A stretch of 64,000 nucleotides of DNA. Source: a virus (lineage: Duplodnaviria; Heunggongvirae; Uroviricota; Caudoviricetes). Location of the stretch: the IMG/VR virus record IMGVR_UViG_3300033153_005726, positions 1 to 64,000 of that record; one strand, 5' to 3'. Below the pieces are notes generated by a model. It had not been told where the DNA came from and searched no databases. It saw only the letters and a program-made list of their open reading frames with translations. A program made the position numbers and the translations under genes. Below are positions 3,681 through 52,087 of the stretch, in pieces (within the stretch, counting starts at the first letter, position 1; every line of letters starts with the position of its first letter).

Positions 3681-4681
3681 TGGATTCTATTCGCCTACAG
3701 AACTTCCAAGCTCACAAAGATACTTTAATAGAATTATCCCCTACATTAACAACTATCACAGGTAAAAGTCACCATGGTAAATCATCTGTGGTGCGTGCCT
3801 TTAAGTGGATGCGTGATAACAAACCGAAGAAGCCACGGTTCATACGTAAAGGTGTCAAGAAAAGTACTGTTACCATAGGTACTGTACGCCATGAACGTAC
3901 TGAGAAAACCAATAAGTATTTCATTGAGGGTAAGAAAGATCCATTCACAGCACTGCGTGGTGCTGTACCTGAAGAAGTGCAACAGGCTTTAGGTTTTGGT
4001 GAAGATAATATCCAAAATCAGCATGACAGTATATTCTTATTGAATGATAGCCCTGGAAAGGTTGCTCAAAAATTGTCAGGGTTAGTTGATTTAGAATCAA
4101 CTACTACTGCTTTAAAATATATTGCTTCCCGCAAAAGGGGACACAATGCGAATGTTGAATCACTTCGCAAATTAATTGAAGATACTGAAGGGCAACTTGA
4201 AAAACTTGAACATGTTGATACGGCTGACGCTGACCTAGCTGAGATTGAAGCAGAAGGGGTGTACATTAAACGCTTGCATGAAAAGCATACCAAAGTAAGC
4301 ACAGCAATTGAAAACGTGTCACGGGCTGATTTGGAGCTTTCAAAGATACCCTCAATTGCCGCCCTTGAACCTGCCAAAAGTATTGCCAAATTGCACAATG
4401 AAGTACAAGTCTTAATAGAAGAACAGAAAATGGTAGGTCATACAGTATGGGCTATAGAAAAATTTGAGGCTGAATTGCAATTTGATCCAAGTAAATTACT
4501 TAAGAAAGCCAAAAGGGTGTGCGGATTGAATGACAAACTTGGCACGGTATCTTTTGCAGTGATGAACGCTGAATCTATTGGGTTAGAAATAGATGATTTG
4601 ATAGTGGAAGAGATTGATTTAAAAGAAAAGAAAGATAAGTTACTTGAAGGGACATGTCCCTTATGTGGGAGATCTGAATGA
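3680..4681 (+). CDS. SbcC/Rad50-like ATPase, N-terminal half: Walker A, coiled coil, ends at the zinc-hook CPLCG
   Basis: LQNFQAHKDT...ITGKSHHGKSS Walker A typical of Rad50/SbcC/RecF-like ABC ATPases; long coiled-coil region; C-terminus ...EGTCPLCGRSE matches the CxxC zinc hook; no signature or Walker B motif in this ORF. Confidence 0.65.
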   Translation: MDSIRLQNFQAHKDTLIELSPTLTTITGKSHHGKSSVVRAFKWMRDNKPKKPRFIRKGVKKSTVTIGTVRHERTEKTNKYFIEGKKDPFTALRGAVPEEVQQALGFGEDNIQNQHDSIFLLNDSPGKVAQKLSGLVDLESTTTALKYIASRKRGHNANVESLRKLIEDTEGQLEKLEHVDTADADLAEIEAEGVYIKRLHEKHTKVSTAIENVSRADLELSKIPSIAALEPAKSIAKLHNEVQVLIEEQKMVGHTVWAIEKFEAELQFDPSKLLKKAKRVCGLNDKLGTVSFAVMNAESIGLEIDDLIVEEIDLKEKKDKLLEGTCPLCGRSE

Positions 4682-5244
4682 AACAATGTACTCGTTGTAA
4701 TACAAATAGAGAGTTAGAAAAATATAGGAAATCATCTTCCTGTAAAGATGGTAGACATACTATTTGCAATAAGTGTAAGAAAAAATACAGTAGAACTAAA
4801 ACAGGTAAAATAAAATCTATTTATGATGATCAACGTAATCATTCTAAAGCGAGAAAGCACCCAATGCCTAATTACACAAAACGAGAATTAATCAATTGGT
4901 GTCTTAAGCAACCTTTATATCATACATTACATACAAAGTGGAAAGCATCAAAATTTTTAAAATCTGCATGTCCATCATGTGATAGAATTGATGATGGTAA
5001 ACCGTACACATTAAATAATTTACAATTAATGACTTGGCAAGAAAATAACAAAAAGAGCCATGCCAACAAATGTAAAGAAGTATTTCAATACGATAAAAAC
5101 ACAAACGGTGTAATCAATAAACATAGTTCTATAGCTATGGCTGGAAAAACAATAGGAATAGCATATCAAGGTATACTTGCATGTTGCAAAGGTACTCAGA
5201 TAACAGCAGGTGGATATAAATGGGGATATGTGTATGAGACGTAA
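4678..5244 (+). CDS. HNH homing endonuclease
   Basis: N-terminal CxxC zinc finger; HNH core CDRIDDGKPYTLNNLQLMTWQENNKKSHAN; C-terminal GYKWGYV-type DNA-binding tail. Confidence 0.6.
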   Translation: MKQCTRCNTNRELEKYRKSSSCKDGRHTICNKCKKKYSRTKTGKIKSIYDDQRNHSKARKHPMPNYTKRELINWCLKQPLYHTLHTKWKASKFLKSACPSCDRIDDGKPYTLNNLQLMTWQENNKKSHANKCKEVFQYDKNTNGVINKHSSIAMAGKTIGIAYQGILACCKGTQITAGGYKWGYVYET

Positions 5245-15649: not shown

Positions 15650-16045
15650 ATGATTATTATAACGAAAGTAGAAACAATCACTGTTGACCGTGATCCTTAC
15701 GAGGTTTTACACCAAGCCATGCCAAATGGTTTTTGCACACCAGATTTAACTGCACCCCCTATGGAATGTGAGGTATTCAGTGAACTCATACACGGTATGC
15801 GTTGGCGTTGGCATGATAGGGACAATGATATTGACATCATTGTAGGTGTCAGTGGCGAAGCGGAAAAGATACTTAACCTTGGGTATGGTATAGTTGAAAA
15901 CCTGAAGAAAGAAACTAACCGCCTTGATGATCTGGTCATGATGCAGGGTATAAACATAAAAGACCAAACCAAAACCATAAAAAATTTACGTGATGCTTCC
16001 TTTTGGCAGCGGTTCAAATGGGTATTCACAGGGGTGACAGAATGA
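15635..16045 (+). CDS. hypothetical protein
   Basis: ORF track; ATGA overlap with thyX start. Confidence 0.35.
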   Translation: MGLFIMIIITKVETITVDRDPYEVLHQAMPNGFCTPDLTAPPMECEVFSELIHGMRWRWHDRDNDIDIIVGVSGEAEKILNLGYGIVENLKKETNRLDDLVMMQGINIKDQTKTIKNLRDASFWQRFKWVFTGVTE

Positions 16046-17775
16046 AAATAGTACAACCGACGGCTAAAGTATGGGGAGAATGTCCTACCAATATTGATGA
16101 AGCTATTGTGTGGATTGAACGTGCTGGGCGTGTATGCTACCGCTCAGAAGATAAAATCATTGAGGGTTCAGGTAGAAAGTTTGTTGATGGGATTGTCAGG
16201 CGTAAACATTTTTCAGTAATTGAACACTCAAATTTCGTTGTCCGCACCAAACCCCTTACTTCTCCACGTAAAGAAATGGAAAAGTTGCGTAACAAATACG
16301 CTACTCCATTCTTGCGTTTTTTATTAAAAGGTGATAGAGTATATATCGGTGGTAATTTTAGAGCGTGGATGGAAATGCTTAAATTAAATACTATTGATGA
16401 GTTATTTGATTATTCCTCTAATGATGGACTTAAACTAATCACTAATCACACTGATATCCCTAAACGCCTTAAAATGGTCACTGCTGAGTTTTTAACTGAT
16501 AGGGCAGTTACCCATGAACTTGTAAGACATCGACCTTCAAGTTATTGTTTAACAGGTGATACACTGATACATCACTTTGCTAATGAAAAAAATACAAATT
16601 CAACTGGCAAGAAAAGAACTATTAAACAATTATATGAATATAGCCAAGATCAACGTAAAGGGAGACTCAAGCTCATATCATTAACTGGTATGGATAATGA
16701 TGGTGAATTAATACCAGTACCAATAAAATCTATAATTAAATCTGGTGTTAAAAAAGTGTATAAATTAGTGACAGCTAATGGTAGAAAAATAAAAGCAAGC
16801 AGAAAACATAGGTTTTGTACTAAAAATGGTTGGAAACGTCTACATGAACTTACTGTCGGAGATTCTATTTTATGTAATGGTATTGAGGTGTCCAGGGAAT
16901 ATATTAAACAAAGGTATCTTATAGATAACTTACAGAGGAAAGACCTTGCAAAAGAAATAGGTATGTCTGATGTATGGTTAGGTAAAAAAATAGCCTTATG
17001 GGGGTTACAAAAACCAAAATCACAATATCCAGGACGTAAGGCAGGACATGGTAATCCTGGAATGCATAGCGAAGAAGAAAAAAAAGCCATTTCAAAACGT
17101 ATGAGTGGTGAAAATAATCACAGATGGAATGGGGGTGTGTGGAAAAATGGAAACACTCAATGTGTGAATAAGTATGATATCTCAAATGAATATTGTGTGT
17201 GCGGTATAAAAGCAGAAGAGCGACATCATATAGATAAAAATCCGAATAACAATGAACCTGATAACATAGAGTTTGTTTGCATCAAGTGCCATAAAGCAAG
17301 ACACTTTGATAAAGTTAAAATAGTATTTGAGGATGAGATAATTTCTATAAAATATGCTGGAAAAGAAGAAACCTATGATATCGAAATTGATCATCCATGT
17401 CATAACTTTATTGCAAATGGTTTAGTGGTTCATAATTCACAGGAATCACAACGATATTGTGCTTATCGCAAACATCTTGAAGTTATTATGCCTTGGCATT
17501 ATGATGGTAATAATCAATCTGCATGTTTTCAAATGTGGAAACAAGGAATTGAGTACTCAGAAAAAGCATATAAATATTTACTACAAAATGGAGAAAAAGC
17601 AGAACAAGCACGTAGTGTACTTCCCAATTCAACAGCAACGAGAATTGTTACAACTGCTACAGTTAAAGAATGGGAACATATCTTTATGTTACGTACTTCA
17701 GCAGCCGCATATCCTGGTATCAGAAACATAATCAATCCAGTAAAGTTGGACTTCCAAGAAAATAATTGGATATAA
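16042..17775 (+). CDS. thyX: flavin-dependent thymidylate synthase ThyX interrupted by an in-frame intein (precursor 578 aa; exteins about 281 aa)
   Basis: ThyX signature RHRxxSxxxxSxR is split: ...ELVRHRPSSY | C... ...VHN | SQESQRY...; C-extein ...ARSVLPNSTATRIVTTATVKEWEHIFMLRTSAAA is ThyX-like; GGGTG RBS before ATG 16042. Confidence 0.75.
   Translation: MKIVQPTAKVWGECPTNIDEAIVWIERAGRVCYRSEDKIIEGSGRKFVDGIVRRKHFSVIEHSNFVVRTKPLTSPRKEMEKLRNKYATPFLRFLLKGDRVYIGGNFRAWMEMLKLNTIDELFDYSSNDGLKLITNHTDIPKRLKMVTAEFLTDRAVTHELVRHRPSSYCLTGDTLIHHFANEKNTNSTGKKRTIKQLYEYSQDQRKGRLKLISLTGMDNDGELIPVPIKSIIKSGVKKVYKLVTANGRKIKASRKHRFCTKNGWKRLHELTVGDSILCNGIEVSREYIKQRYLIDNLQRKDLAKEIGMSDVWLGKKIALWGLQKPKSQYPGRKAGHGNPGMHSEEEKKAISKRMSGENNHRWNGGVWKNGNTQCVNKYDISNEYCVCGIKAEERHHIDKNPNNNEPDNIEFVCIKCHKARHFDKVKIVFEDEIISIKYAGKEETYDIEIDHPCHNFIANGLVVHNSQESQRYCAYRKHLEVIMPWHYDGNNQSACFQMWKQGIEYSEKAYKYLLQNGEKAEQARSVLPNSTATRIVTTATVKEWEHIFMLRTSAAAYPGIRNIINPVKLDFQENNWI
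16546..17436 (+). mobile_element. intein (297 aa) with embedded HNH endonuclease and HTH, inserted in the ThyX catalytic motif
   Basis: Starts CLTGDTLI (intein block A), ends GLVVHN (block G) followed by +1 Ser; internal CVCGIKAEERHHIDKNPNNNEPDNIEFVCIKCHKARH is an HNH/zinc motif; LIDNLQRKDLAKEIGMSDVW is HTH-like; removing it restores a contiguous RHRPSSYSQESQR motif. Confidence 0.7.
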
Positions 17776-17787
17776 TAAGAGGTTAAT

Positions 17788-17988
17788 ATGAAAATAGAAT
17801 GTGAAGTATCAGGATGTTATACAATGGTGACCATATCAAGGTGGAAACAGTTCAAACGTAAATTGAGTAGCCTACGCCATGGGTATGACTTTTACGCACC
17901 TATCTTATGCCCAGAACATATGGAACGTGCCACTTCAGGGGGAATTAGTGATAATGACCCCATGACCAATCCTGACTTGGAGAAATAA
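17788..17988 (+). CDS. small Cys/His-containing protein
   Basis: ORF track; GAGG RBS. Confidence 0.35.
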   Translation: MKIECEVSGCYTMVTISRWKQFKRKLSSLRHGYDFYAPILCPEHMERATSGGISDNDPMTNPDLEK

Positions 17989-17989
17989 A

Positions 17990-18529
17990 ATGGAATTTAA
18001 TGGGTATATGGTGGGTACTGTTGGTCACATGCTTAATAGCAAAGCAATATCACACATCACTGATAATGAAAAGCAAAAATTACGTTCGATACACGGATGT
18101 CCTGTTAATAGAAGAATACCCGCTAAAATGTCCAGGTCATGTTTCAGAAACATGTGTTTAACTTTTCAAAGTCATGCTGGTATTAATTCTAATAAACAAA
18201 ATGGGAAAAATACACGTATGACTTTGAGAGGATTTAAATCTAATAACACTTTAGTATGTGTCGGATGTATTATAGGAGAATCTGTACGTAATAATAAAGA
18301 ATATGAAGCACCTCCTGAATTGACATTTGTAGATATAACACCTCCGGTAATACCACCTCATCCGAAAGCGCGTAAAGGTAGAGTTAAACTTACGAAAGGT
18401 GAAGTACAACATATTAGAAAATTACATCAAGAAGGTGTTAAAATAAGTAGACTTATGGAATTGTATTCAAAAATGAGTAGAGCAGCAATATCGAATGTAG
18501 TTAATAGAATTACTTGGAAAAATATATGA
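17990..18529 (+). CDS. hypothetical protein with C-terminal helix-turn-helix
   Basis: C-terminal LTKGEVQHIRKLHQEGVKISRLMELYSKMSRAAISNVVNRITW resembles a sigma-70 region-4 / homing-endonuclease-type HTH. Confidence 0.35.
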   Translation: MEFNGYMVGTVGHMLNSKAISHITDNEKQKLRSIHGCPVNRRIPAKMSRSCFRNMCLTFQSHAGINSNKQNGKNTRMTLRGFKSNNTLVCVGCIIGESVRNNKEYEAPPELTFVDITPPVIPPHPKARKGRVKLTKGEVQHIRKLHQEGVKISRLMELYSKMSRAAISNVVNRITWKNI

Positions 18530-18638
18530 TATATGGGTTTGCCACAGGAACTGGAACACGAATTGGAACACAAACCTGGAAATTATGTGTCTATCGGTGG
18601 AATTAGGCAAAAAAGCTGGATCATATAGGGAGTAAAAC

Positions 18639-18773
18639 ATGCTTGCAAGCTATGTCTGTAACAAATGCGATCACAAAACAGTGAGAACGCATACTATATT
18701 GACAGGTCTTCTATGTTCTAAATGTAGGAATGGACGAATGATAGTGAAGAAAATAGCAAGGAAATCAAAATAA
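18639..18773 (+). CDS. 44-aa zinc-ribbon protein (not in ORF track)
   Basis: AGGGAG RBS; CNKC...CSKC; TAAATG coupling to next ORF. Confidence 0.3.
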   Translation: MLASYVCNKCDHKTVRTHTILTGLLCSKCRNGRMIVKKIARKSK

Positions 18774-19136
18774 ATGAACACAATAGCAACATTCAAACTA
18801 TGCAAATTATCCGACAAGAATCTCCTGCAAAAAGTAGATAAGGGAACTGATAAAATGTACAAAACTGGAGAGATCCCAACCAGGACGAGACTAAAAGAAG
18901 AACTTAGGAGAGAGTGTATGGCTATGGGAGTTATTTTATGCGTTGACTGTGGACTACCAGAGCAAGATTGTACTTGCGAGGTGGAAGTTGAATACCGCAG
19001 ATTAAAAAAAGGTGAAAAAATATTGAAAACTGATGAATACCTTGATGATGACCGGTGGGTATTAACAACGTGCGCTGGAGACTTGGCACCAGATCCGCAA
19101 TACACTTGTCATCGAGAGTATAGGCGTAGGCTATAA
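18774..19136 (+). CDS. hypothetical Cys-containing protein
   Basis: ORF track. Confidence 0.4.
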   Translation: MNTIATFKLCKLSDKNLLQKVDKGTDKMYKTGEIPTRTRLKEELRRECMAMGVILCVDCGLPEQDCTCEVEVEYRRLKKGEKILKTDEYLDDDRWVLTTCAGDLAPDPQYTCHREYRRRL

Positions 19137-19189
19137 ATAATGCCAAGCTCACGTGGGATCGTGGATAAAGCACGGAACCAAATAAGCAA

Positions 19190-19279
19190 GACGAAAACTT
19201 AAAATAAAGGAAACAGATAATTCGAAGATAGGCGCTGCCTGGGGCCAATCTGGATTTATTTGTTATGTGAGTTGTTATG
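19190..19279 (+). repeat. cassette leader repeat, copy A (AAAACTTAAAaTAAAGGAAACAG ... GGCGCTGCCTGGGGCC ... TTATTTGTTATGTGA)
   Basis: Shares ~35-nt 5' block and ~20-nt 3' block with 20291..20372 and partially with 21039..21119. Confidence 0.5.
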
Positions 19280-19603
19280 GAGAAAGTACCAAGTGTAGGA
19301 AAAACCTACAACTGTTTTGATGACGGGAAGATCCGTGTAAGTAGGCGATATGATATCACGGTAAAATCATTAACTCCATTTGACAAGGCCGACAGCCACA
19401 CGCTTAATATTTGGAAAAGTGAAGTGAAGAGCTGCTACTGGCTTTACAACACAGAAACCGATTTCTTTGTGTTGGGGGTTCGAGACGATGGTGAAAAAGA
19501 GACATTTGTCAGAACTGTTGATGGTGGATGGTTTGGTATAGGTGGTTTTTTGAATTGCGGAAGATTAGATATTGATGGTAAGTGCAACACGCTTGACACA
19601 TAA
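19277..19603 (+). CDS. hypothetical protein (cassette gene 1)
   Basis: ORF track; ends in conserved ...ACATAACGTTTTA. Confidence 0.45.
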   Translation: MEKVPSVGKTYNCFDDGKIRVSRRYDITVKSLTPFDKADSHTLNIWKSEVKSCYWLYNTETDFFVLGVRDDGEKETFVRTVDGGWFGIGGFLNCGRLDIDGKCNTLDT

Positions 19604-19741
19604 CGTTTTAAATCACCGGCTGGCCATGGGGCTACCGTGATTTTATAGCGTGGCAGAAACTTAAACAAACAACCGGAGAACGGGCGTGTGAGCCAGTCGT
19701 GTGCATTTGCTTGTTATCTTTTAATTTTTGAGGGTTTAGTA

Positions 19742-19933
19742 ATGAACAAACAAAACGCAGCAATAATAAAAAGAGAATATGCCCAAGATGGCAAGAAACT
19801 TATCACTGTTTGTGGGCAAACTGGGAAAAAGGTTGGGAGTGCCGACTGTGAAAGAAATTGCAAATATTTTCATTCTTCGGAGCATTTTTACAAGACCATA
19901 AATTGTTATGACCCAGATAGAAATTTGTTTTGA
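19742..19933 (+). CDS. small Cys-containing protein (start at internal Met of track ORF 19688)
   Basis: GAGGG RBS before ATG 19742. Confidence 0.35.
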   Translation: MNKQNAAIIKREYAQDGKKLITVCGQTGKKVGSADCERNCKYFHSSEHFYKTINCYDPDRNLF

Positions 19934-19975
19934 AGATAACGTTTATACAAGCCGCCTTGAACGGAGTAACTAAAA

Positions 19976-20236
19976 ATGAAAAACGAAACTAAAGTAACCC
20001 CGGAAGATAGCTCAAAGAAAGGCGCTGCTCGTGGTCTGCTTGATACGATTGTTATGTGGTTGCATATCTTTATGTTGATTATTGGCGCTCCTGTGTTTTC
20101 GGTTCTAATTGGACTGATGGAAGCAAGAGATTATGGGAAATTAGCAGTACGAGATTTCACGATAGGGTTCTTGTCGTATTTTGTTAATTTATACACCGAA
20201 ATAAAGAAAGTTGTGTCTATCACTGTCCACATATAG
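19976..20236 (+). CDS. small membrane protein (cassette gene; N-terminus MKNETKVTPEDSSKK shared with 20687 and 21430 genes)
   Basis: TM segment WLHIFMLIIGAPVFSVLIGL; carries the conserved 29-nt motif at 20010..20038. Confidence 0.45.
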   Translation: MKNETKVTPEDSSKKGAARGLLDTIVMWLHIFMLIIGAPVFSVLIGLMEARDYGKLAVRDFTIGFLSYFVNLYTEIKKVVSITVHI

Positions 20237-20290
20237 CAGCCTGTATCAGCGGAAATGAGAAGCATAACCGCTAAACTTGATACGAAGAAT

Positions 20291-20372
20291 AAAACTTAAA
20301 CAAAGGAAACAGGTAATTCAAAGCCGGATCTCTCGTTTTCCGACTGAATTTATTTGTTATGTGATTTTTATG
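20291..20372 (+). repeat. cassette leader repeat, copy B
   Basis: AAAACTTAAACAAAGGAAACAGGTAATTCAAAG ... TTATTTGTTATGTGATTTTTATG. Confidence 0.5.
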
Positions 20373-20633
20373 AGTGATTTTACACAAGGTGTCGCTGGTG
20401 GGTTGAGACGAATGAATATTCAGCCTGATGCTTTTTTGTTTTGTGAAGATGATGGTGTTACGTTTGATGAAGCTGAAATTCTTGGTATTCCCGTGTTTCA
20501 TTCCGCACTTATAATAAACACATATACAGATCTAAATATTCCATTTATTCCGATCTGGAAGGCGGAAAGTGATTATATCATTCAGAGAGGATTATTTAAT
20601 GACGGGTATGAGCAGAATTGCAATGCAACATAA
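20370..20633 (+). CDS. hypothetical protein (cassette gene; start at internal Met of track ORF 20277)
   Basis: Conserved leader ends at this ATG; 3' end ...AACATAACGTTTTAG. Confidence 0.4.
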   Translation: MSDFTQGVAGGLRRMNIQPDAFLFCEDDGVTFDEAEILGIPVFHSALIINTYTDLNIPFIPIWKAESDYIIQRGLFNDGYEQNCNAT

Positions 20634-20686
20634 CGTTTTAGCTCACGGGATTTTTGCAATTTAACCACTGAACGAGGAATGAAAAT

Positions 20687-20986
20687 ATGAATGACGATAA
20701 ACCCAAAACTACGCCCGAAGAAAGCGCTGGCAAAATTCCGCTGCAGCGCCTTGTTAGCCAATTATTTGCAGTTGCTTATGAGGATGACGGCCCAAGCGGT
20801 ATTTGTGGGCAAGCTTGCAGCATCACAAACCCATGGCGCAAACTGTATCTTTTTGAAACAGAAGAAAAGATGAGGGAGTTTGTAAGGAAAATTGAGCAAA
20901 CTACTGGAAGATTAAGAGGACGAATCGTTGGCATGTATTATCCAGCGCCTGGATCAGTAGGTGATATCAGTTTTATTTCTGGCTAA
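20687..20986 (+). CDS. hypothetical protein (cassette gene; N-terminus MNDDKPKTTPEES)
   Basis: ORF track; GAGG RBS. Confidence 0.4.
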   Translation: MNDDKPKTTPEESAGKIPLQRLVSQLFAVAYEDDGPSGICGQACSITNPWRKLYLFETEEKMREFVRKIEQTTGRLRGRIVGMYYPAPGSVGDISFISG

Positions 20987-21038
20987 CGTTTCAATAACCT
21001 GCTGCAAGGATACGAAGCACTGAACGTGGCTAAACCAC

Positions 21039-21119
21039 AAAACTAAATACGGAGGACAAAGCCCAATAAACCACGCTGCTTGCGGTCTGCGTTTATTGGC
21101 TTGTTATGTGATTTATATG
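21039..21119 (+). repeat. cassette leader repeat, copy C, containing hairpin CCAATAAAC(20-nt loop)GTTTATTGG
   Basis: Loop carries CGCTGCTTGCGGTCTG; followed by TTGTTATGTGATTTATATG. Confidence 0.5.
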
Positions 21120-21371
21120 GATTTACCCCCATTGAGAAAAACAGTGAGGATAAAATTTTGGTCTTTGCGCAATGGTGTTGGCCCCAATCTTGGCGTTATT
21201 TTTGACATGGACGAACAAGTTGAACGTGAAGCGTATCGTGTCCGTGTCGAAGATGGTTGGAAGTGGCAAGTAAAAGGGCTGAACACCATAAACAGGTATG
21301 ATTCAACCGCAGACATAGACCAGGAAGTATTTGACGAATATGGCAGTGAGCTTGAAGTTGAATACGCATAA
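21117..21371 (+). CDS. hypothetical protein (cassette gene; start at internal Met of track ORF 21096)
   Basis: ATG 6 nt downstream of the ATGTGA mini-ORF; ends ...GCATAACGTTCTAGC. Confidence 0.4.
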   Translation: MDLPPLRKTVRIKFWSLRNGVGPNLGVIFDMDEQVEREAYRVRVEDGWKWQVKGLNTINRYDSTADIDQEVFDEYGSELEVEYA

Positions 21372-21429
21372 CGTTCTAGCTAACCTGCCGCAAGCGAACT
21401 ACCACGAAACTTTGAACAAAGGAAAGACT

Positions 21430-21702
21430 ATGAATAACCCGAAAACTGAGCTCAAAGAAAGGCGCTGCTTGCGGTCTGAGTTAAGCGCCTTGTTATCTGA
21501 TAATAGCTCTGGAGATTTGCTTGATGTGTGGGAGCTGTTTCGTTTGAAATGCCCTTGGTCTGAACATAAAAGATCATGGGATGAAACGGAGTTCTCTTGC
21601 ATGGCTATTCGGTACGGAGGCGGTGCTGGTAGAGAGTGTTCGATGAAGCTGTGCGCCCCTTTTTATTTTGTGAAAACACTGACTGAATGTGCTGCAAGAT
21701 AA
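21430..21702 (+). CDS. hypothetical protein (cassette gene; N-terminus MNNPKTELKE)
   Basis: AAAGGAAAG RBS 5 nt upstream; contains hairpin 21459..21491. Confidence 0.4.
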   Translation: MNNPKTELKERRCLRSELSALLSDNSSGDLLDVWELFRLKCPWSEHKRSWDETEFSCMAIRYGGGAGRECSMKLCAPFYFVKTLTECAAR

Positions 21703-21764
21703 CAGTGTAATAAGTGGAAACTTTCCACTAATACATTTACTTCAACCGGATTAAGTGGAAAACA

Positions 21765-22055
21765 ATGACAGACAAACTATTACCATGCCCGTTTTGTGGT
21801 GGAAAAGCCGACAGCCGGCCACAATATGGAGTTGTTGAATGTATGGATTGTGGTATTGAAAAAGAAGAAGATGACCTACATAGTGCGGAATACTATTGGA
21901 ACACTCGCACTACAACAGTCGAAGAACCACCTGACGTTTTTCAGCGAACAATGAAACTTTGCCCAATATGTGGGAACAAGCGTTGTCCACACGCAACAGA
22001 TGTTAAATATAAATGCACGAATAGCAATCGACCTGGACAATCAGTATCAACATAA
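21765..22055 (+). CDS. Lar-family restriction-alleviation-like zinc-ribbon protein
   Basis: N-terminal ...LLPCPFCGGKA motif and ...AEYYWNTR, characteristic of the Lar family; an extra C-terminal CPICGNKRCPH ribbon. Confidence 0.5.
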   Translation: MTDKLLPCPFCGGKADSRPQYGVVECMDCGIEKEEDDLHSAEYYWNTRTTTVEEPPDVFQRTMKLCPICGNKRCPHATDVKYKCTNSNRPGQSVST

Positions 22056-22069
22056 GGAAATCAAACCAA

Positions 22070-22297
22070 ATGAAAGAAGAGTTAACAAGATATACCTGTG
22101 ATCATTGCAGTAATAAAATAACTGTCGGAAAAGATGTCTACGCAGGGACACCGCTCGCTGACAGATGGGTGAGAATGTACCTGAAAGTTAAATCTATTGA
22201 CGTACAAAAGACAAAAGTACATTTCTGCGGAGAAGGTTGCGCTACGGCGTATTTGTTGAAGAGAAGCTCGCAAAAACAATCAAAGGAAACCAAATGA
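22070..22297 (+). CDS. zinc-ribbon protein (intact paralog of pseudogene 1919..2100)
   Basis: CDHC...CGEGC. Confidence 0.4.
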   Translation: MKEELTRYTCDHCSNKITVGKDVYAGTPLADRWVRMYLKVKSIDVQKTKVHFCGEGCATAYLLKRSSQKQSKETK

Positions 22298-22455
22298 CAT
22301 ATAAACCAATAAAAACAGCACCAAAAGACGGCACTTACATCTTAGTCTTCGGTGATAGCAGGACGGGAAACTGTTACGAAACCGATACTAAAATAAACGG
22401 ATTTGATAGTTGTAAACATATGGCTATTGATGCCTGGAACAGAAGAGTGAAATGA
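22294..22455 (+). CDS. DUF551-like small protein with Lar-like C-terminal AWNRR motif
   Basis: MTYKPIKTAPKDGTYILVF (DUF551-type N-terminus); ...HMAIDAWNRRVK. Confidence 0.4.
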   Translation: MTYKPIKTAPKDGTYILVFGDSRTGNCYETDTKINGFDSCKHMAIDAWNRRVK

Positions 22456-22655
22456 ATATGCAACGAATATTAGTAGGTATTGGATTGACATTATTTTGCT
22501 TTGCAACAATTGGAGTGCAGGTAGTAACACGCATAATAGATATATCAAACAGGGGGTGGGAAACGTACAGAATAGTGGGGGAAGCTGTCTTCGGTGGAGC
22601 TATTATTGTCGCTTGTTTATGTTTTATAATATCAGTGATGCTCGAACTTTATTAA
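22452..22655 (+). CDS. small two-TM membrane protein (holin-like topology, function unproven)
   Basis: Two hydrophobic helices ILVGIGLTLFCFATIGVQVV and VFGGAIIVACLCFIISVML; last + strand gene before the convergent junction. Confidence 0.35.
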   Translation: MNMQRILVGIGLTLFCFATIGVQVVTRIIDISNRGWETYRIVGEAVFGGAIIVACLCFIISVMLELY

Positions 22656-22708
22656 ATATGAGTTGAACAGGGTTCGAACCTGTAATCTCCTGAAGGTGTT
22701 ATCATCAT

Positions 22709-22739
22709 CTACTGAGTTTATTTTGTTTAAACTCAGTAG
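22709..22739. repeat. perfect 12-bp inverted repeat CTACTGAGTTTA(7-nt loop)TAAACTCAGTAG at the convergent junction; candidate bidirectional terminator
   Basis: Lies between the last + strand gene and the stop of the - strand endolysin; no clean T-tract. Confidence 0.35.
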
Positions 22740-22807
22740 GATTTACGCTGGCTCTATTAAGTTACCTGCCACCCAAGTGTTTTCCCAATTAAACTACCAA
22801 CCCAATT

Positions 22808-23329
22808 CTATAAAACATAAAATAAAAGATCAGCAACCCTATTGACCCAACCACGTAAAAATTTATTTTGACTAGGGTTCTTTTTAACTAAGGCACTATA
22901 TCGTTTTAATCTATAACCAATAATACCACTTATTAAACTTTGTTGATCATGCATTGAAATTGCTAAAAGGCTTTGTAAGCCAATTATACCATCAACTACT
23001 AACTGACTACCTTTTTTATTACACGCACGTTGTAGCCACTTTGCCGAGCTCCCTACACCACAATTAATACCCGTATCAAATAGTACAGTAGCAAGTGACT
23101 CAGTAACATCATTACAACGTAACATCATCCAATAATCATCATAATAAATTTTTAAAGCCTGTGATTTTCTTAAATTCACAATGTCAATGTCTGGATATGC
23201 CTTTGCAGAAATTCCATATTTTGTTTTTCCACCTAAATCTGAAAGCTCATCAGAAAACACACCTTCCATTTCAAGTACAAATTCTACAGCCTTCAAATAT
23301 TTATCTAATTCAAAATGTATAGAATTCAT
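22808..23329 (-). CDS. endolysin, GH108-type N-acetylmuramidase with C-terminal peptidoglycan-binding domain
   Basis: LEMEGVFSDELSDLGGKTKYGIS matches the GH108 E-G-G..D..D.GG.T..GI signature; C-terminal region is PG_binding_3-like. Confidence 0.65.
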   Translation of the reverse strand: MNSIHFELDKYLKAVEFVLEMEGVFSDELSDLGGKTKYGISAKAYPDIDIVNLRKSQALKIYYDDYWMMLRCNDVTESLATVLFDTGINCGVGSSAKWLQRACNKKGSQLVVDGIIGLQSLLAISMHDQQSLISGIIGYRLKRYSALVKKNPSQNKFLRGWVNRVADLLFYVL

Positions 23330-25861: not shown

Positions 25862-27394
25862 TCAATCACAAGTTTTCTTATAAGAACGAATAACTTTTTC
25901 CCTAGTAAATTTTTTTAATTGTACTGTTCTTTTATATATTTTACAAGATGATAATATTAAAGCTGGTATCACTGTGGCTATTATAGTATCGGAGAATTCA
26001 AAAGTATCTGAGAATTCTGTAAATAGCCCTTTACTTACTATCAATGAGTCAGATAATCCAAGAGCATCTGTGAGCAATGAAGTATTACCAAATATAAATG
26101 AATCAGATAAAATAAATGCATCATTTATTTGTGCTACACTATTTTGAACAACTTCGAGTGTATCAGATAATGTTAGAGTATCCTGAGAGAATATTTTTAA
26201 ATTAGCCAATACAACAATAGAATCTGATAAGCTGAGGGAATCCACTATACTTATAATGATTCCTATACTTAATACATCAGATAATGATAAAGAATCAGAT
26301 ATGCTTATATGAGCGTGTAACAGCCCCGTAGCAGTATCTATTAATGAAAGTGTATCACTGATATCAATTTTTGCTTTAAGCAGCGCTGAAGCAATGTCAG
26401 TGAGTGCTAGAGTGTCTTGTATATTAGTTTTATATTTTTGAAGTACATCAAACTGTTCAGCTAAAGCAAGAGTATCAGAAATGGATACACTATTTGCTGA
26501 TAATAAGTCAAAAAGATCCGACAACATTATAGTATCAGAAAGTTGAGAAATATAATTAGCTAAAGAATCGTCTGAATCCGAAAGAGTTAATGAATCAGAA
26601 GTACTCAGAAGATAATGACCAATATCAACAATAAAATCTGATAAAGATAATGTATCGAGAGTTGAGATAGAATAATGGCCTATCGCTTCTGGAGTATCAG
26701 ATAAAGATAAAGTATCAAACGGTGTTGTTGTATAATGCCCAATAGGTTCAAATATATCTGTTAATGATAAAGTATCATAAATTTGTAAAAGTTGACCAGT
26801 AGAAAATACACTAGTCAAAACTAATGTATCAGTCAGAAATGCAGAGTAGTTGCCTGTAGTAATTGTATCATCAGTTAATAATAAAGTATCTGATATTTGA
26901 ACAGCTATACCAACGGAGAGTAAATCAGTCAGAGATAGAGTATCTGAAGGAGAAATTGAAAAATGACCTACTATTTCTTCGCCATCAGTTAAAATTAACG
27001 TATCCAGTAATGTTGCTGTATAATTTCCTATTGTTTCAAGGGTATCAGATAGTACTAAAGTATCTCCAGAAGAGATAGAATAATTACCTAATGATTCAAG
27101 TGTATCTGAAAAAGATAAAGTATCTGATATTTGAACAGCTATACCAACAGAAAATACATCAGATAAAACTAAAGTATCAAATATTTCTACAATTTGACCA
27201 GTTCCAACACTATCTGTTAAAGTCAGTGTATCGGAAAATGAAACTATATAATTTCCCGAAGCAGAAAAAGAATCAGTTAAGTTAAAGGTATCAGATATTT
27301 CTGCTGTTTGACCAGTTCCTGATTCTTCAGTCGATCCTAAATATAGGTCATCATCAGAAGTAAGATATCCTCTATAAGTTATTACCCATCCCAT
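25862..27394 (-). CDS. tandem-repeat fibre-like protein (about 28 copies of a 17-aa unit, core DTL(S/T)LSD)
   Basis: Periodic SDTLSLSDxxExIGHYxxS repeats throughout; start overlaps the stop of the 1217-aa fibre gene. Confidence 0.55.
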   Translation of the reverse strand: MGWVITYRGYLTSDDDLYLGSTEESGTGQTAEISDTFNLTDSFSASGNYIVSFSDTLTLTDSVGTGQIVEIFDTLVLSDVFSVGIAVQISDTLSFSDTLESLGNYSISSGDTLVLSDTLETIGNYTATLLDTLILTDGEEIVGHFSISPSDTLSLTDLLSVGIAVQISDTLLLTDDTITTGNYSAFLTDTLVLTSVFSTGQLLQIYDTLSLTDIFEPIGHYTTTPFDTLSLSDTPEAIGHYSISTLDTLSLSDFIVDIGHYLLSTSDSLTLSDSDDSLANYISQLSDTIMLSDLFDLLSANSVSISDTLALAEQFDVLQKYKTNIQDTLALTDIASALLKAKIDISDTLSLIDTATGLLHAHISISDSLSLSDVLSIGIIISIVDSLSLSDSIVVLANLKIFSQDTLTLSDTLEVVQNSVAQINDAFILSDSFIFGNTSLLTDALGLSDSLIVSKGLFTEFSDTFEFSDTIIATVIPALILSSCKIYKRTVQLKKFTREKVIRSYKKTCD

Positions 27395-39039: not shown

Positions 39040-41394
39040 TTATGCAACATAATCAATATGTTGTTCTACGTTGAGTACTTGTTGAGCACTAAATCCTCCA
39101 GTAGAACGTGCAGCAGCTACACTAACTGATGTTACTTGTCCATACCAAACTTCCCCACGTTCTTTAACAGCAAGCATGTCTCCTGGTTTGAACAATCCCA
39201 TGCCACTACCAGCAGGACAAAGTACACTTAAACGAAGGGTGTGTTTTATCCACTCACCTACTTCACCAATAATCATTTTACCACGTTCACCTGCAGATTC
39301 ACTAGTAGTTAGTAGTTTATCAGTAATCATTGGGGCTTGTCCAGTATAATCAGAATTTCTCCACACTTTTGTAAATATAGAATCATCTTCTGCATCATCA
39401 CCTTCAACAAGTGTCCCATTAGACCTTACATTTTCTCCTATTACATGAACTTCATTATAATAAGGTTTTAGTTCATAACTCCTTGCTATTTCTACACATT
39501 GATCTTCAACAATACCAAAATAGTGATCTTCAGAACCATCCCATTTCCAAGGAGCATTTCTATACATAGGTTTTACGTGAAAAGTATTCTCACTGGCATC
39601 AGTTTGTATGTAAGCACCAATAGTATCGGTAAGTGTTTTCATTATTTCTATAGTGGTTTTATCTGTATAAGAGAATGTATCTGCAGGAATAAACCACATT
39701 TGATCATGTGCATTAAAACCACTTTCTATATCTTGATATCCAGTACCATAATCACGCCCTATATCTCCAGCAGACTCACCCCAGCTTGCAATCCACGATT
39801 CAAAATCGCTATGCCAGCCAGAAGCAGGAGTTTTATTTTCTATTAATGCATTAAATATCTGCCCTCCTGCATATGGAGTCGTTTCAACACCTGAATGTTT
39901 CATATCTATAGGATCACCAAACATTAATGAATGTGACCTGCCAACAACTGTCCAGGCATCTTTACCAAATGATCTATTTTCTGACCATCCCTCAACAACA
40001 CAATTCCATTTGTATCCATTTATTTCAATAACAATAACGACAAACACGCCATTATAAGGTTTCATTTTTTCAAGGCAATCACGAGAAGCGACTGTCACAC
40101 TAAACTGCCATAACCAACTATCCCTATCAATAGTGGCAGAAACAGCTAACACTTCAATTGGTGTGTTGGTTATATATTCTTTAACTAAAATTGAATTTAA
40201 CATATAATATACCTGTTGTGCTATTGGGAATAATCGGTCTTCTGGTTCAATTAATATACCTGAACCTGCATCTCTCCAACCTGTATGCCAATGACCAATA
40301 AAGGGACAACGTGGATTGGGATCTGATGTATAGGTAGTTAAATCAAAAGTAAGTCCACTACAAACATCAGGTGTCAATGGATATTTAGAAGGAAAATTAA
40401 ATGGAATAGAATAACATGCTTTTGGAGGCCAATAAATATCTCCAAAACATATTTTGTAATAACTAAAAGGCCCCCAGGCAATACATTTATTTGCGTCATT
40501 TGCATCTGGGGCATTCCATATAGTGTCAAAATGCCAATCATATGCTACAGGCTCATCAAATTTAGCGCACTTAGATATGTCATTAGGATCTGGGGCATTC
40601 CAAGGTACTGCAAAATGCTCATTAATGTATTCTAAATTAGAACCCCATAAAGCAGTATTATGTTCATCTATTATAGAAAACTGATCCCATAGGGCAGCTA
40701 TTGATAAATCCCATAAATCCTTAAATACACTAGCTGAAGAATGAACTGTATTGTCTAAATATTCCAATATAAACCATGAAAAACCTATAGATAAATCAGG
40801 TTTGTCTTCTGCTTTGAAAGATGCAGCAATTACACGTCTTCTATCTTCCCCATCACCAGCGGGAAATCTTTTAAGTGTATCTACACCTACATTACCTCCC
40901 CAACCAGTACCACAACCCTCTTCTGGAATTAAAGTGCTTGGTAAATGATGTTCTTCAGTACCCCGTATTAATGATTCTGTTGCACTAGTCAAAATAGTAA
41001 CATCATCTATCACCATATCAGGTAATATTTCAATGTCATGTAAAGGTAGCTCTATATTTATTTCTACATCATCTATCACCATATCAGGTAATATTTCAAT
41101 GTCATGTAAAGGTAGCTCTATATTTATTTCTACATCATGAGGTTCATGATGATACATAGGTTCTAGCAAATAGTCAAAAAATTCTATATTAATGTCAGCA
41201 TTGGCCGTATTAATAGTAGGTCCATTATGTACCCAACTTTCTTGAGCTTCAAGTACAATTTCAACATTAGCGGTATTAATATCTGGTGCTACATCCCCAC
41301 CAACATCAAAAGTAATGCTTGTACAGATAGGTGGAGTATACGAACCACTGCTATCAAAATCAAGTACATTACATATTGGAGGGGTATACGCCAT
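39040..41394 (-). CDS. baseplate/fibre structural protein with internal 22-aa tandem duplication
   Basis: ORF track; duplicated INIELPLHDIEILPDMVIDDVE. Confidence 0.45.
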   Translation of the reverse strand: MAYTPPICNVLDFDSSGSYTPPICTSITFDVGGDVAPDINTANVEIVLEAQESWVHNGPTINTANADINIEFFDYLLEPMYHHEPHDVEINIELPLHDIEILPDMVIDDVEINIELPLHDIEILPDMVIDDVTILTSATESLIRGTEEHHLPSTLIPEEGCGTGWGGNVGVDTLKRFPAGDGEDRRRVIAASFKAEDKPDLSIGFSWFILEYLDNTVHSSASVFKDLWDLSIAALWDQFSIIDEHNTALWGSNLEYINEHFAVPWNAPDPNDISKCAKFDEPVAYDWHFDTIWNAPDANDANKCIAWGPFSYYKICFGDIYWPPKACYSIPFNFPSKYPLTPDVCSGLTFDLTTYTSDPNPRCPFIGHWHTGWRDAGSGILIEPEDRLFPIAQQVYYMLNSILVKEYITNTPIEVLAVSATIDRDSWLWQFSVTVASRDCLEKMKPYNGVFVVIVIEINGYKWNCVVEGWSENRSFGKDAWTVVGRSHSLMFGDPIDMKHSGVETTPYAGGQIFNALIENKTPASGWHSDFESWIASWGESAGDIGRDYGTGYQDIESGFNAHDQMWFIPADTFSYTDKTTIEIMKTLTDTIGAYIQTDASENTFHVKPMYRNAPWKWDGSEDHYFGIVEDQCVEIARSYELKPYYNEVHVIGENVRSNGTLVEGDDAEDDSIFTKVWRNSDYTGQAPMITDKLLTTSESAGERGKMIIGEVGEWIKHTLRLSVLCPAGSGMGLFKPGDMLAVKERGEVWYGQVTSVSVAAARSTGGFSAQQVLNVEQHIDYVA
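41001..41132 (-). repeat. perfect 2 x 66-bp tandem duplication inside the 784-aa gene
   Basis: catcatctatcaccatatcaggtaatatttcaatgtcatgtaaaggtagctctatatttatttcta repeated head-to-tail. Confidence 0.6.
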
Positions 41395-50800: not shown

Positions 50801-52087
50801 GTTACCTTCAATGTTATTTTTTATCTGTCCATCACCTATATCCCATATAGAATACCATTTACCACCAGCAAGGAAATCTATTTTCAAACTTCCTGGTTGT
50901 GGTAATGGATTGCAACTAAATGTGTAAACAAATCCACGATTATTGGTATCAATTATAATGCCACCAGTTTCAGAAATCTGTTGAGGGGCACAAGCGGGAA
51001 TGTATACAGCAGATCCAGTACCAGAAGAAGTAATACCAGCATCACCAAAAGTGATAATACCTGTATCATATGCTATAGAACCTATTATAGTCCCGCCTAC
51101 AGATGGTGTCCATATATTATTTTGCCCATCATCTTCCAATGCCAGACCACCAGTCCAGCTAAAAGTTTTTGGTAAAACTCCCTCACCGATAAATAATTTA
51201 GCATTAGTGCTTATGCTATATTGAATACTTCTGGTAACAGTTGTTTGTGCATCCTCTGTTTGAATCATTGGTGCTATAGAAACACCAACTCCAGCATCTG
51301 TAATAGCAGTTTCTGAAGCTGCTGAAGGAACTAAAGCTGTTTGTATATCATCTACTTGTATTTGCAATTCACCAGCATTAGCATTTTCAAGTAAATTAGA
51401 AACACCATAATAACGAGAAGCATCTGCTGCAACCGTAGTATATATAGGGGTACTTTCCATATTATTCCAATCATAATAAATTTCAGCCCCATCAAGGTCA
51501 TTTGCTAATTGAGAACCTAATGTGATAGAAATATGATTTCTATAGTAGACATTCTCATCGTCTGTATAAAATTCAGTGAGTTCTGAAGATAAATCTATTA
51601 TACGGACATACTGTTCTGTCACACCTTCACCTAAAACAAGTACATCTCCTATTTCAGGGATAGGCCAATTTGCTAAAGTGATACAAGAAAGAAACGCAGT
51701 GCCAGCATAATGATTGCCCCATAATTTAATATTGGCACTTGGTCCTTTTACAAGATATGCTTCTATACGATCACGAGCATCCTCACGTACACTAAACCAA
51801 TCTTTATTAGAAAAGAAGCAAACCGACACATTAGGGTCTTTTGCCTGTTCAGTTATAATTGTGTGCGAACCATAGTACGTTTCTCTATTTGCAGTTTGTA
51901 CAGCAAGGTAAGCTTTACGCATTGATACCCGACCATATACACGATCAAGTCTTGAAATATCTGGAAACAGATTATTAACAACCCCATCAACAACTTCAAT
52001 AGAAGTCATTTGGCCACCACCTTGATCAGTATCATCAAGACGCTGTGATTCCATTAATTTAATATCTTCTTTATTTATGTCAGCCAT
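47840..52087 (-). CDS. giant tail tip / baseplate hub-like protein (1415 aa; Tal-like position downstream of TMP and Dit-like gene)
   Basis: Position and size; no motif-level confirmation. Confidence 0.4.
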   Translation of the reverse strand: MADINKEDIKLMESQRLDDTDQGGGQMTSIEVVDGVVNNLFPDISRLDRVYGRVSMRKAYLAVQTANRETYYGSHTIITEQAKDPNVSVCFFSNKDWFSVREDARDRIEAYLVKGPSANIKLWGNHYAGTAFLSCITLANWPIPEIGDVLVLGEGVTEQYVRIIDLSSELTEFYTDDENVYYRNHISITLGSQLANDLDGAEIYYDWNNMESTPIYTTVAADASRYYGVSNLLENANAGELQIQVDDIQTALVPSAASETAITDAGVGVSIAPMIQTEDAQTTVTRSIQYSISTNAKLFIGEGVLPKTFSWTGGLALEDDGQNNIWTPSVGGTIIGSIAYDTGIITFGDAGITSSGTGSAVYIPACAPQQISETGGIIIDTNNRGFVYTFSCNPLPQPGSLKIDFLAGGKWYSIWDIGDGQIKNNIEGNESLGSGSVNYDTGSVSITLGAMPDVDSQVLFFWAKPSELYDLSGETLPLKYEFTTENDGVARNTFVFTWVGDGNGPGPANEYGIVDDGNSLLQDAEYDFGDATTWIASTSYELTDEVLPITKNGYTYECTVAGTSNSSEPTWPIVPGSTVDDGGVTWECQLADIGDWSPAASPITVGSIKYATGEVELQPAASQSTPVASEVFTISYNYGDPFTDVFEAPPRDGLGHIHLTLTNTPIVPGTFNILWHTDLEEYDPETRIDMTIDPIYFFKDDGAGNFAGDIDDGSDNWVQGTINYTTGEIMYHPDRISVFPHAVYDWMVTEWMHPGVVESYVFDYIEYLPAASTFPADGSVTCSYCTTDGANFDTYSGTIAPTYTIKPDKYLEIIPGGLHISAAGQHIVDGTNGNLYTHVDGIVGNKTQVGTVNYAQKTFTIISDSINIASMEIDFCAGSGVIDPTMTLVFRAPGAPIRPGSAFIRGTTGGGTLIEGQSDFSGDITGAGIVGHVNFSTGLCKVSFGTWVLDDAEAQAADWYNANTESGGNVWKPYVVRASTILMNCVITSYLPLDPDLLGLDPVRLPLDGRVPIFRDGYIIVVHYSVSSTGEDLGGPQGDDLLSRDASQIDDWEGNPCATQNNNNTLPLAVDHKVEIITDAGATLYPNRDLIEVYALPTAFDTLNGDLTCPKYVPEAGEYTVNLEPLDGTGDDDIRTASVTFLAGFPDNGGTGFGTAHNAMYDGQSTPRDVVILSRIEDMCLASDVQVTGHIAITSALTHSYPADGTLVSSVLPSADLQARAYNEFEQSVWDGTWSDERIDAEPLASYNFVDYPITVTNAPSIKERWLIKFTSTTKVSVIGEKFGVQSLGIVDGNPVDEVKVAELTSEEITAIRAKGAYPGNVSGVYGYPGELDPLCLIIHNKQFPINEEKGITTTNQSYFVIKLDGFGSSWATGNCIRFNTDAANFPLWFIRTTLQAPPTEPVDYYTIQIRGDSS

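Follow-up and report, generated by a model that had tools for sequence, protein, structure and literature searches.

A probable array of attC-type sites, without an integrase and with inverted gene polarity, in a metagenomic phage genome

What is a short repeated motif doing within small phage genes when it is translated in two different reading frames? This question is raised by the virus record IMGVR_UViG_3300033153_005726 of IMG/VR (Caudoviricetes), of which we analyzed positions 1 to 64,000, a stretch of 64 kb referred to here as the window. A first-pass annotation of the window had described the conserved 15-mer GCTGCTTGCGGTCTG as a loop presented by hairpins with unrelated stems. Our results suggest that the motif is part of a much larger element. 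We consider it probable (roughly 0.6) that this element is a recombination site of the integron attC type and that 19.1-21.7 kb is an array resembling the integrase-less attC clusters known as CALINs, with seven one-gene cassettes of inverted polarity. Support observed here comprises the anatomy of the unit, the covariation of its arms, an asymmetry between the strands and a match to the geometry of the Vibrio cholerae repeat (VCR), as well as homology to attC-like units flanking bacterial defence genes and a shuffling of genes at unit boundaries.

The copies of the motif are genuine, with two exact 15-mers (21075-21089 and 21464-21478) and a 13/15 copy (20024-20038), and their number is marginally above chance (three matches versus 0.53 expected, with 3 of 100 shuffles equalling three). 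Both of the stems described around the exact copies, CCAATAAAC/GTTTATTGG (21063-71 / 21091-99) and AAGGCGCT/AGCGCCTT (21459-66 / 21484-91), are perfect; the third hairpin, AGATAGG/CCAATCT, exists with one mismatch, and its loop is just loosely similar to the motif. The regions of the two perfect hairpins can be aligned over 53 nt with 77% identity, and in this homologous alignment their stems are out of register; they therefore do not represent covariation of one helix. A 29-mer is indeed read in two frames, as SSKKGAARGL in the open reading frame (ORF) 19976-20236 and as LKERRCLRS in ORF 21430-21702, because a 1-nt indel shifts the frame. The idea of a structured, frame-independent element acting at the nucleotide level stands, while that of a loop on unrelated stems does not: the motif forms the 3' side of a long-range helix and pairs there with TAACCTGCYGCAAG, a 5' partner ~75 nt upstream. 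The element is also far larger than had been proposed. Self-comparison, alignment and an nhmmer profile all delineate a unit of 100-135 nt that is present seven times, one ahead of each of seven small ORFs, and is confined to 19165-21520 of the window.

Each unit is a long imperfect palindrome with the end boxes xxATAAC and GTTATxx (ACATAAC, for instance, is the reverse complement of GTTATGT). Inward from these boxes lie an unpaired spacer of 4-5 nt, a covarying second helix and a variable centre, and GCTTGCGG pairs with a conserved CYGCAAG box ~75 nt upstream. The sequence TTGTTA is common to all copies of the unit, xxATAAC(GTTT) recurs at the ends of genes and GTTATG is ~16-fold enriched within the array. 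The 5' boxes overlap the TAA stop codon of the preceding gene in four of six units. Units U2, U3, U5 and U6 are built on the plan of U7; U2-U7 are 121-133 nt long with centres that differ in both sequence and length, and the units are on average 55% identical, none of their conserved blocks exceeding 15 nt. The features of the array, all on the + strand, are as follows.

19277-19603, 19742-19933, 19976-20236, 20370-20633, 20687-20986, 21117-21371, 21430-21702, +: the ORFs of the seven single-ORF cassettes.
19130..19268, +: U1, degenerate, preceding ORF 19277-19603; it keeps AAACTTAAA, ATTTATTTGTTATGTGA and a short local hairpin and has no clear 5' AAC box.
19598..19719, +: U2, attC-like, ACATAAC GTTTT AAATCAC CGGCTGGC ... 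GCCAGTCG t GTG c ATTT GCTT GTTATCT; its 5' box contains the stop codon of ORF 19277-19603.
19934..20057, +: U3, attC-like, AGATAAC GTTTA TACAAGC ... GCTTGaTA CGATT GTTATGT; it holds the 13/15 motif copy, and ORF 19976-20236 begins in its centre and is read through the 3' arm.
20231..20362, +: U4, with a mutated 5' box (ATATAGC) and a centre homologous to that of metagenomic units (AAACTTGATACGAAG).
20628..20759, +: U5, diverged, ACATAAC GTTTT AGCTCACGGGATTTTTGC ... GGCAAAATTCCGCTGCAGCGCCTT GTTAGCC; ORF 20687-20986 begins inside it.
20981..21109, +: U6, GGCTAAC GTTTC AATAAC CTG CTGCAAGG ... GCTTGCGG TCTGC GTTtATT GGCTT GTTATGT; it contains an exact motif copy and the first described hairpin (21063-21099).
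20993..21009, +: 5' partner box of the motif in U6, AATAAC CTG CTGCAAGG, as given by the pairs and pair counts of the RNAalifold consensus.
21366..21498, +: U7, GCATAAC GTTCT AGCTAAC CTG CCGCAAGC ...75 nt... GCTTGCGG TCTGA GTTaAGC GCCTT GTTATCT; it contains the other exact motif copy and the second hairpin (21459-21491), and ORF 21430-21702 begins in its centre.
21378..21395, +: 5' partner box of the motif in U7, AGCTAAC CTG CCGCAAGC; the ATAACCTGCCGCAAGCGAAC within it is identical in the Logan locus L087.
21696..21764, +: U8, truncated, at the end of the array; an AGATAAC box lies over the stop codon of ORF 21430-21702, and there is a hairpin, ATAAGTGGAAA/TTTCCACTAAT, but no GTTAT box.

The pairing of the arms became evident only when arms were compared with arms. 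Among 17 units from nine sources, and with the conserved boxes excluded, cognate arms paired at -12.8 kcal/mol versus -7.9 kcal/mol for non-cognate arms, and none of 20000 permutations was as good (p < 5e-5). An RNAalifold consensus of five units from three sources recovered the R box, the L box and the extension of the helix; 94% of paired cells were paired, as against 25-55% when the partners were slid, and four L-box pairs had changed on both sides, with a covariation score above that of 500/500 shuffles. The stem covariation proposed by the first-pass annotation is a property of the helices of the larger unit and not of the two local stems. In individual units, the arm duplex was strong in U2 (z = -3.1) and in U5 (z = -2.45, the best cognate partner in its row), weak in U4 and no better than shuffles in U1. 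Unconstrained folds of whole units as single-stranded DNA (ssDNA) were mostly no better than shuffles and gave the long-range helix in U7 but in no other unit.

These pairings also bear on the original proposal, in which the single-stranded loop GCUGCUUGCGGUCUG, displayed on short hairpins, would be the binding site of a phage protein such as one of the zinc-ribbon type. The two local hairpins of U6 and U7 do fold, at z ~ -1.4 to -1.6, and GGTCTG is conserved even where its partner is imperfect. The motif copy in U3, however, has no local hairpin, and the GCTTGCGG half is paired with a distant conserved box not only in the window but also in L087 and in 20 metagenome contigs. Members of the family occur, moreover, in bacteria and in unrelated phages lacking the small proteins of this phage, and nothing was found in support of zinc-ribbon binding. 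We regard this explanation as very improbable. In our folding models the local hairpins draw on the L' box and the spacer, either as terminal folds or in competition with the long-range helix.

The anatomy of the units resembles that of an attC site. In the description by Nivina (2016; PMC5027507), attC has an R box in which just AAC/GTT is conserved, an L box, an unpaired central spacer and a terminal structure that varies; extrahelical bases occur on the arm facing AAC, and the bottom strand exceeds the top strand in both stability and number of G:T pairs. Sites of this type recombine as a folded single strand (PMC5027507). Demarre (2007; PMC2095811) used a VCR bottom-strand oligonucleotide that reads TTATAAC GCCCG ... 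CGTTT GTTATAA, and the R box of our units is identical to that of the VCR (TATAAC/GTTATA), with a similar spacer. The R-box consensus (RYYYAAC / GTTRRRY) is represented by ACATAAC, AGATAAC, GCATAAC and GGCTAAC at the 5' end and by GTTATGT, GTTATCT and GTTAGCC at the 3' end, the exceptions being U4, which has AGC for AAC, and U1, which has no box. In 16 metagenomic units AAC/GTT alone is invariant, and perfect boxes (ACCTAAC, GTTAGAT, GTTAGGC) are present. The arms of the L box pair though their sequence differs between sites. In U2, U7, L065, L009a and L009d, as well as in most of 17 metagenomic units, both arms leave positions 8-12 unpaired. The lengths of U2-U7 fall within the 57-141 bp of attC sites and close to the size of the VCR (about 123-133 nt). 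Like attC and VCR sites, the units are imperfect palindromes with a variable centre, ~5 nt of unpaired spacer and an invariant AAC...GTT, and they occur once per small cassette in co-oriented arrays.

The positions of extrahelical bases provide a finer comparison, for which each unit was folded as ssDNA under the constraint that AAC pairs with GTT, and the VCR served as a control. The control showed bulges on the 3' arm at 16, 20 and 24, as published (G16, T20 and T24 in VCR2). On the same arm, bulges were found at 16 and 20 in U2 and L065, at 16, 20, 22 and 24 in U7, and at 16 in L009a, L009d and L087up; scoring covered the units other than U3, U5 and U6, which were set aside because other folds won. 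The 5' arms in these constrained folds had mainly the spacer unpaired, with one more unpaired base at ~21 in a few units. The 17 metagenomic units, picked regardless of attC features, had bulges at 16/20/21/23/24/25 in 9/8/7/8/6/6 cases on the 3' arm and in 0/5/2/1/1/1 cases on the 5' arm. The original motif occupies unit positions ~20-34, which take in the second and third extrahelical bases together with the extension of the helix. Of the two strands, the one bulged on its 3' arm was the more stable in 13 of 15 units and carries 21 G:T pairs versus 5 on the other, matching the asymmetry of the attC bottom strand.

Similar units exist outside this genome. A metagenome scan for the two paired boxes found 20 contigs, and a covariance model, R2, was built from 16 metagenomic units alone. 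In the window R2 detected five significant units, all on the + strand: U7 (81.7 bits, E = 8e-20; 14.3 bits on the - strand), U6 (64.9 bits, E = 3e-15), U4 (45.0 bits, E = 8.5e-10), U3 (32.0 bits, E = 3e-6) and U2 (24.7 bits, E = 3e-4). U5 scored 8.5 bits, which is not significant, U1 was missed and there was nothing else in the 64 kb at E < 0.2. Elsewhere R2 found co-oriented arrays of five units in L009 and four in L095, and a unit-gene-unit arrangement in L101 and L110. An exact-pattern scan of genomes gave mostly chance or rpoC-like matches and one true match, L065. The motif itself occurs in three IMG/VR records (L019, L059 and L063), in L087 and in the 20 metagenome contigs. The first-pass annotation had named a motif confined to this genome and stems that fail to covary as the outcomes that would speak against its element; neither occurred.

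The contigs with these units differ in the polarity of their genes. In bacterial-type contigs, one of which (L111) is a piece of a bacterial chromosome, the same family flanks genes for GmrSD, TIR, Mrr(-like) and type I restriction-modification specificity (RM-S) proteins. In at least 12 metagenomic contigs the flanking genes are opposite to the motif strand, which is the canonical polarity of cassettes, the attC site there coming after a promoterless ORF of the top strand. The phage-like contigs, namely the window, L009 and L095 (which encodes DNA polymerase A, UDG and a TET-associated glycosyltransferase), have their small ORFs on the motif strand; the shorter contigs L087, L022 and L033 have the same polarity and are grouped with them by polarity alone. 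Several units of phage polarity carry a ribosome-binding site (RBS) and an ATG in their centre, which, with the ORF on the motif strand, accounts for the reading of the motif in two frames. A hairpin that precedes its gene and can contain the RBS and start codon sets the phage array apart from attC and VCR arrays; the conserved boxes in the centre of the units (AAACTTAAA and CYGCAAG/CTTGCGG) are a further difference, as is the absence of any visible intI, attI or Pc with the phage array.

This polarity gives some weight to an explanation at the level of mRNA, in which the units, whether derived from attC or not, would be intercistronic stem-loops that serve in RNase III-type processing, as 3' stabilisers or in translational coupling. 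Under coupling, the basal helix would be melted by a ribosome that halts at the TAA in the 5' box, and an RBS (GUGAU/GAGG) directly past the 3' box would become free. Conserved imperfect hairpins lie on the sense strand at gene boundaries in phage T7, where they are RNase III processing sites between early genes, and in cluster K mycobacteriophages, where the SAS/ESAS inverted repeats lie upstream of start codons. In phage contigs the folding strand is always the sense strand and is also that with the excess of G:U-type wobbles; RNA parameters favour it (-391 versus -354 kcal/mol summed), and, apart from the stop codons in the 5' boxes, the next start codon lies 7-30 nt past the 3' box in U1, U2, U4 and U6. 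The family is, however, antisense to the flanking genes in the bacterial-type contigs (at least 12) and in L019, L059 and L063, and the bulge positions and end boxes fit a DNA recombination site. The ORFs of U3, U5 and U7 start inside the loop and are translated through the 3' arm, and most units fold as RNA no better than shuffled sequences. In Rfam 15, searched over 17500-23000 at E <= 5, no family matched the units, the matches being just a tRNA and one chance miRNA match. We know of no AAC/GTT end boxes, mobility between unrelated genomes or antisense occurrence for the T7 or SAS/ESAS hairpins. Folding of the sense strand would suit an mRNA role equally well, but as an explanation of the units we consider such a role unlikely.

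The arrangement of genes around the units varies between genomes. Homologues of ORF 19277-19603 in L009 and L087 have the same kind of units at each junction and other neighbours, and two ORFs that adjoin each other in the window have homologues in L009 that are separated by two additional genes. L019, L059 and L063 share one unit of 121-147 nt, 95-97% identical and with the exact 12-mer GCTTGCGGTCTG, in unrelated flanks, and the identity ends directly after GTTAT. Identical units whose unrelated flanks break at the box, and a differing gene order with units at every junction, are indirect support for recombination.

Shuffling of this kind is also known from the stem-loop cassettes of T4-type phages called PeSLs (PMC2839356, PMC4122927), which consist of a strong sigma-70 promoter and a terminator stem-loop and recombine by homology. 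If the units were PeSL-like, they would be promoter/terminator modules that shuffle ORFans by homologous recombination between repeats and with no site-specific cleavage. The likeness is considerable: conserved intergenic stem-loop modules of ~100 nt flank ORFans in a hyperplastic region and are missing from close relatives, the neighbours of one gene vary between genomes and the concept was described for phages (PMC2839356, PMC4122927). The promoter, terminator and homology-based recombination of PeSLs are, however, not seen in the window. No + strand sigma-70-like promoter was found in any unit with a consensus that may not be that of the host, and the scan placed just two weak terminator-like sites, both in U2. 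Units with the low identity and short conserved blocks given above are a poor substrate for homologous recombination, the identity between L019, L059 and L063 stops sharply at the GTTAT box, and neither covarying arms nor fixed bulge positions are a property of PeSLs. We consider such cassettes an improbable explanation, and promoter or intrinsic terminator functions of the units were likewise rejected.

Other candidates were tried and rejected. A hairpin bridging a Shine-Dalgarno (SD) sequence, or an AUG-UGA start-stop device as in T4 genes 38/25, was rejected because the TTGTTATGTG box of L009 lies upstream of a normal SD and ATG and because GUGAU/GUGAG can serve as SD in U1, U4 and U6. Reading AACG/LLCG as a lipobox or signal peptide failed on inconsistent frames. 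None of IS200/IS605, MITE/Correia, REP, Xer/dif and pdif-module elements accounts for one long palindrome that contains a spacer and whose arms covary. The context of P0188, a 234-kb phage, was rejected as an integron.

Several observations weigh against attC-type sites. No recombination event was directly observed, and a sense-strand hairpin with G:U pairs is what an mRNA-level element would resemble. No recombinase was present among the ORFs of the window that were tested, and tblastn with an Xer-like query was also empty, in a search that covered 64 kb of an 86-kb source contig; within the window no intI lies adjacent to the array, as it would in a complete integron. All ORFs of the array are on the bottom-like strand as judged from R2 and the bulges, and the canonical polarity is not found here. 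Some R' boxes, such as GTTATGT, differ from GTTRRRY at one position, U1, U4 and U5 are degenerate and for U6 the predicted stability of the local hairpin exceeds that of the long-range fold. The conserved AAACTTAAA box in the centre is something that attC does not need. A mini-model (R1) made from two canonical attC oligonucleotides gave no match in the window at E < 0.5, although this model probably lacks power and loses score over the centre of 70-80 nt.

If the units are attC-type sites, the + strand would fold into the R box (xxATAAC/GTTATxx), the unpaired spacer, the L box with single extrahelical bases and the extension CYGCAAG/CTTGCGG around the variable centre. A tyrosine recombinase would be expected to cut between AA and C of the 5' box of this folded strand. 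The activity of a recombinase on the units is inferred, and the enzyme would most likely be a host integron integrase, because none was seen in the window. Xer-like recombinases adjoin single units in L065 and L099, a candidate link, and score far below the curated cut-offs for integron integrases. Cassettes could in this way be exchanged between phages and possibly with host integrons. With each ORF on the folding ('bottom') strand, the hairpin lies upstream of its gene, and those of U3, U5 and U7 supply the RBS, the start codon and the first ~25 codons.

The window is part of a phage genome. Its + strand encodes a ligase, an SbcCD-like nuclease, an SPFH protein and an intein-bearing ThyX, and its - strand carries tail and giant structural genes. 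The relatives closest to it, whose SPFH protein is 67-77% identical, are syntenic and without units, and a collection of isolate phages showed no similarity at megablast or blastn sensitivity. None of the seven cassette ORFs had a match in Pfam or PHROG.

Some further features of the units and their surroundings were noted. The box AAACTTAAA(C/T)A recurs in the centre of many units (window 19195, 19657 and 20292; L009, L019, L022 and L047), often followed by an SD-like AAGGA, and could be a relic RBS, a promoter -10 element or a protein site. A Lar-like restriction alleviation gene (21765-22055) lies directly after the truncated last unit, and its adjoining the array hints at counter-defence genes as cargo. 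At 22659-22803 on the - strand, exactly at the switch from + strand to - strand genes, an Rfam tRNA match of 40.7 bits spans 145 nt for a model of 71 positions, and ARAGORN calls nothing; this may be an intron-containing or disrupted tRNA. The ThyX ORF (16003-17775) encodes 590 aa with an intein/HNH-like insert, as compared with 287-288 aa in the relatives L004 and L005 and 435 aa with Intein_splicing in L007. Of two free-standing homing endonuclease genes, an I-HmuI/NUMOD-like ORF (4678-5244) lies between the SbcC-like and SbcD-like genes and one of the HNH type (52087-53508) between giant structural genes. A perfect 66-nt tandem duplication (41000-41131) lies in the gene of a 784-aa tail protein (39040-41394, -), and repeats with a period of 54-60 nt (ATCAGATAAAGATAAAGTATC...) occupy 26150-27300 of a 510-aa - strand ORF (25862-27394), probably a repetitive fibre-like protein.

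Three of the related loci have features of their own. In L065, an integrative and conjugative element (ICE)- or plasmid-like region (AcaB, ParM, RadC) of a gammaproteobacterial (Gammaproteobacteria) metagenome-assembled genome, two adjacent Xer-like tyrosine recombinase genes are separated from an attC-like unit by a perfect palindrome at 1395-1450, GTTATTATGCGG tgct CCGCATAATAAC, which has the appearance of a core site for a recombinase, with arms resembling the unit end boxes. In L009, an 11.5-kb RepB-primase/helicase element, a sequence like the 3' end of a tRNA (GGGTTCGACTCCC, ~3820-3850) is found just upstream of the five-unit array and may be the attachment site of a satellite-like element. 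In L059 (reverse-complement 1692-1907) the attC-like unit has a sequence of ~43 nt, TTAAATTTATCTAACTCACTTTTGAAAGATTCCAA, on either side; this sequence occurs once in L063 (5913-5978), between GTTAT and CATAAC boxes, and resembles a mini-cassette with no ORF.

Clusters of attC sites in virulent phages were first reported in 2023, in a few genomes. Qi et al. (2023; PMC9892861) found these integrase-less attC arrays (CALINs) in marine virulent phages and observed that the sites are recombined by IntI1. The array described here resembles theirs as an attC array without an integrase in a phage. It differs in having no sequence similarity to any phage of the isolate collection searched, in belonging to a family shared with bacterial defence-gene cassettes and in the inversion of all its genes relative to attC polarity. 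We regard the attC-type identity of the units as well supported, and compared with the family's bacterial cassettes the genes of the array have their polarity inverted.

Integrons are usually seen as bacterial devices for gene capture. Here, one attC family, which both sequence and structure make recognisable, joins bacterial GmrSD, TIR, Mrr and restriction-modification cassettes with ORFan arrays in at least three or four unrelated phage-like genomes, and the phage arrays have the opposite gene polarity, with translation starting inside the hairpin. We tentatively raise the possibility, which is for now a doubtful one, that marine phages keep their own attC arrays of small ORFans, perhaps with counter-defence functions, in the same attC family as the defence-gene cassettes of their hosts, with the ORF on the recombinogenic strand and the start codon inside the hairpin, and that the host integron integrase shuffles genes on either side of this arms race. 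If so, a phage cassette taken up by a bacterial integron would be turned towards the Pc promoter and would not be expressed. Should the sites be active, both strands of hypervariable phage regions could be searched during annotation for TAAC...GTTA palindromes bulged at 16/20/24, and ideas on how phage ORFans arise and spread would become testable. Phages and their hosts would then share one recombination machinery for reshuffling accessory genes.

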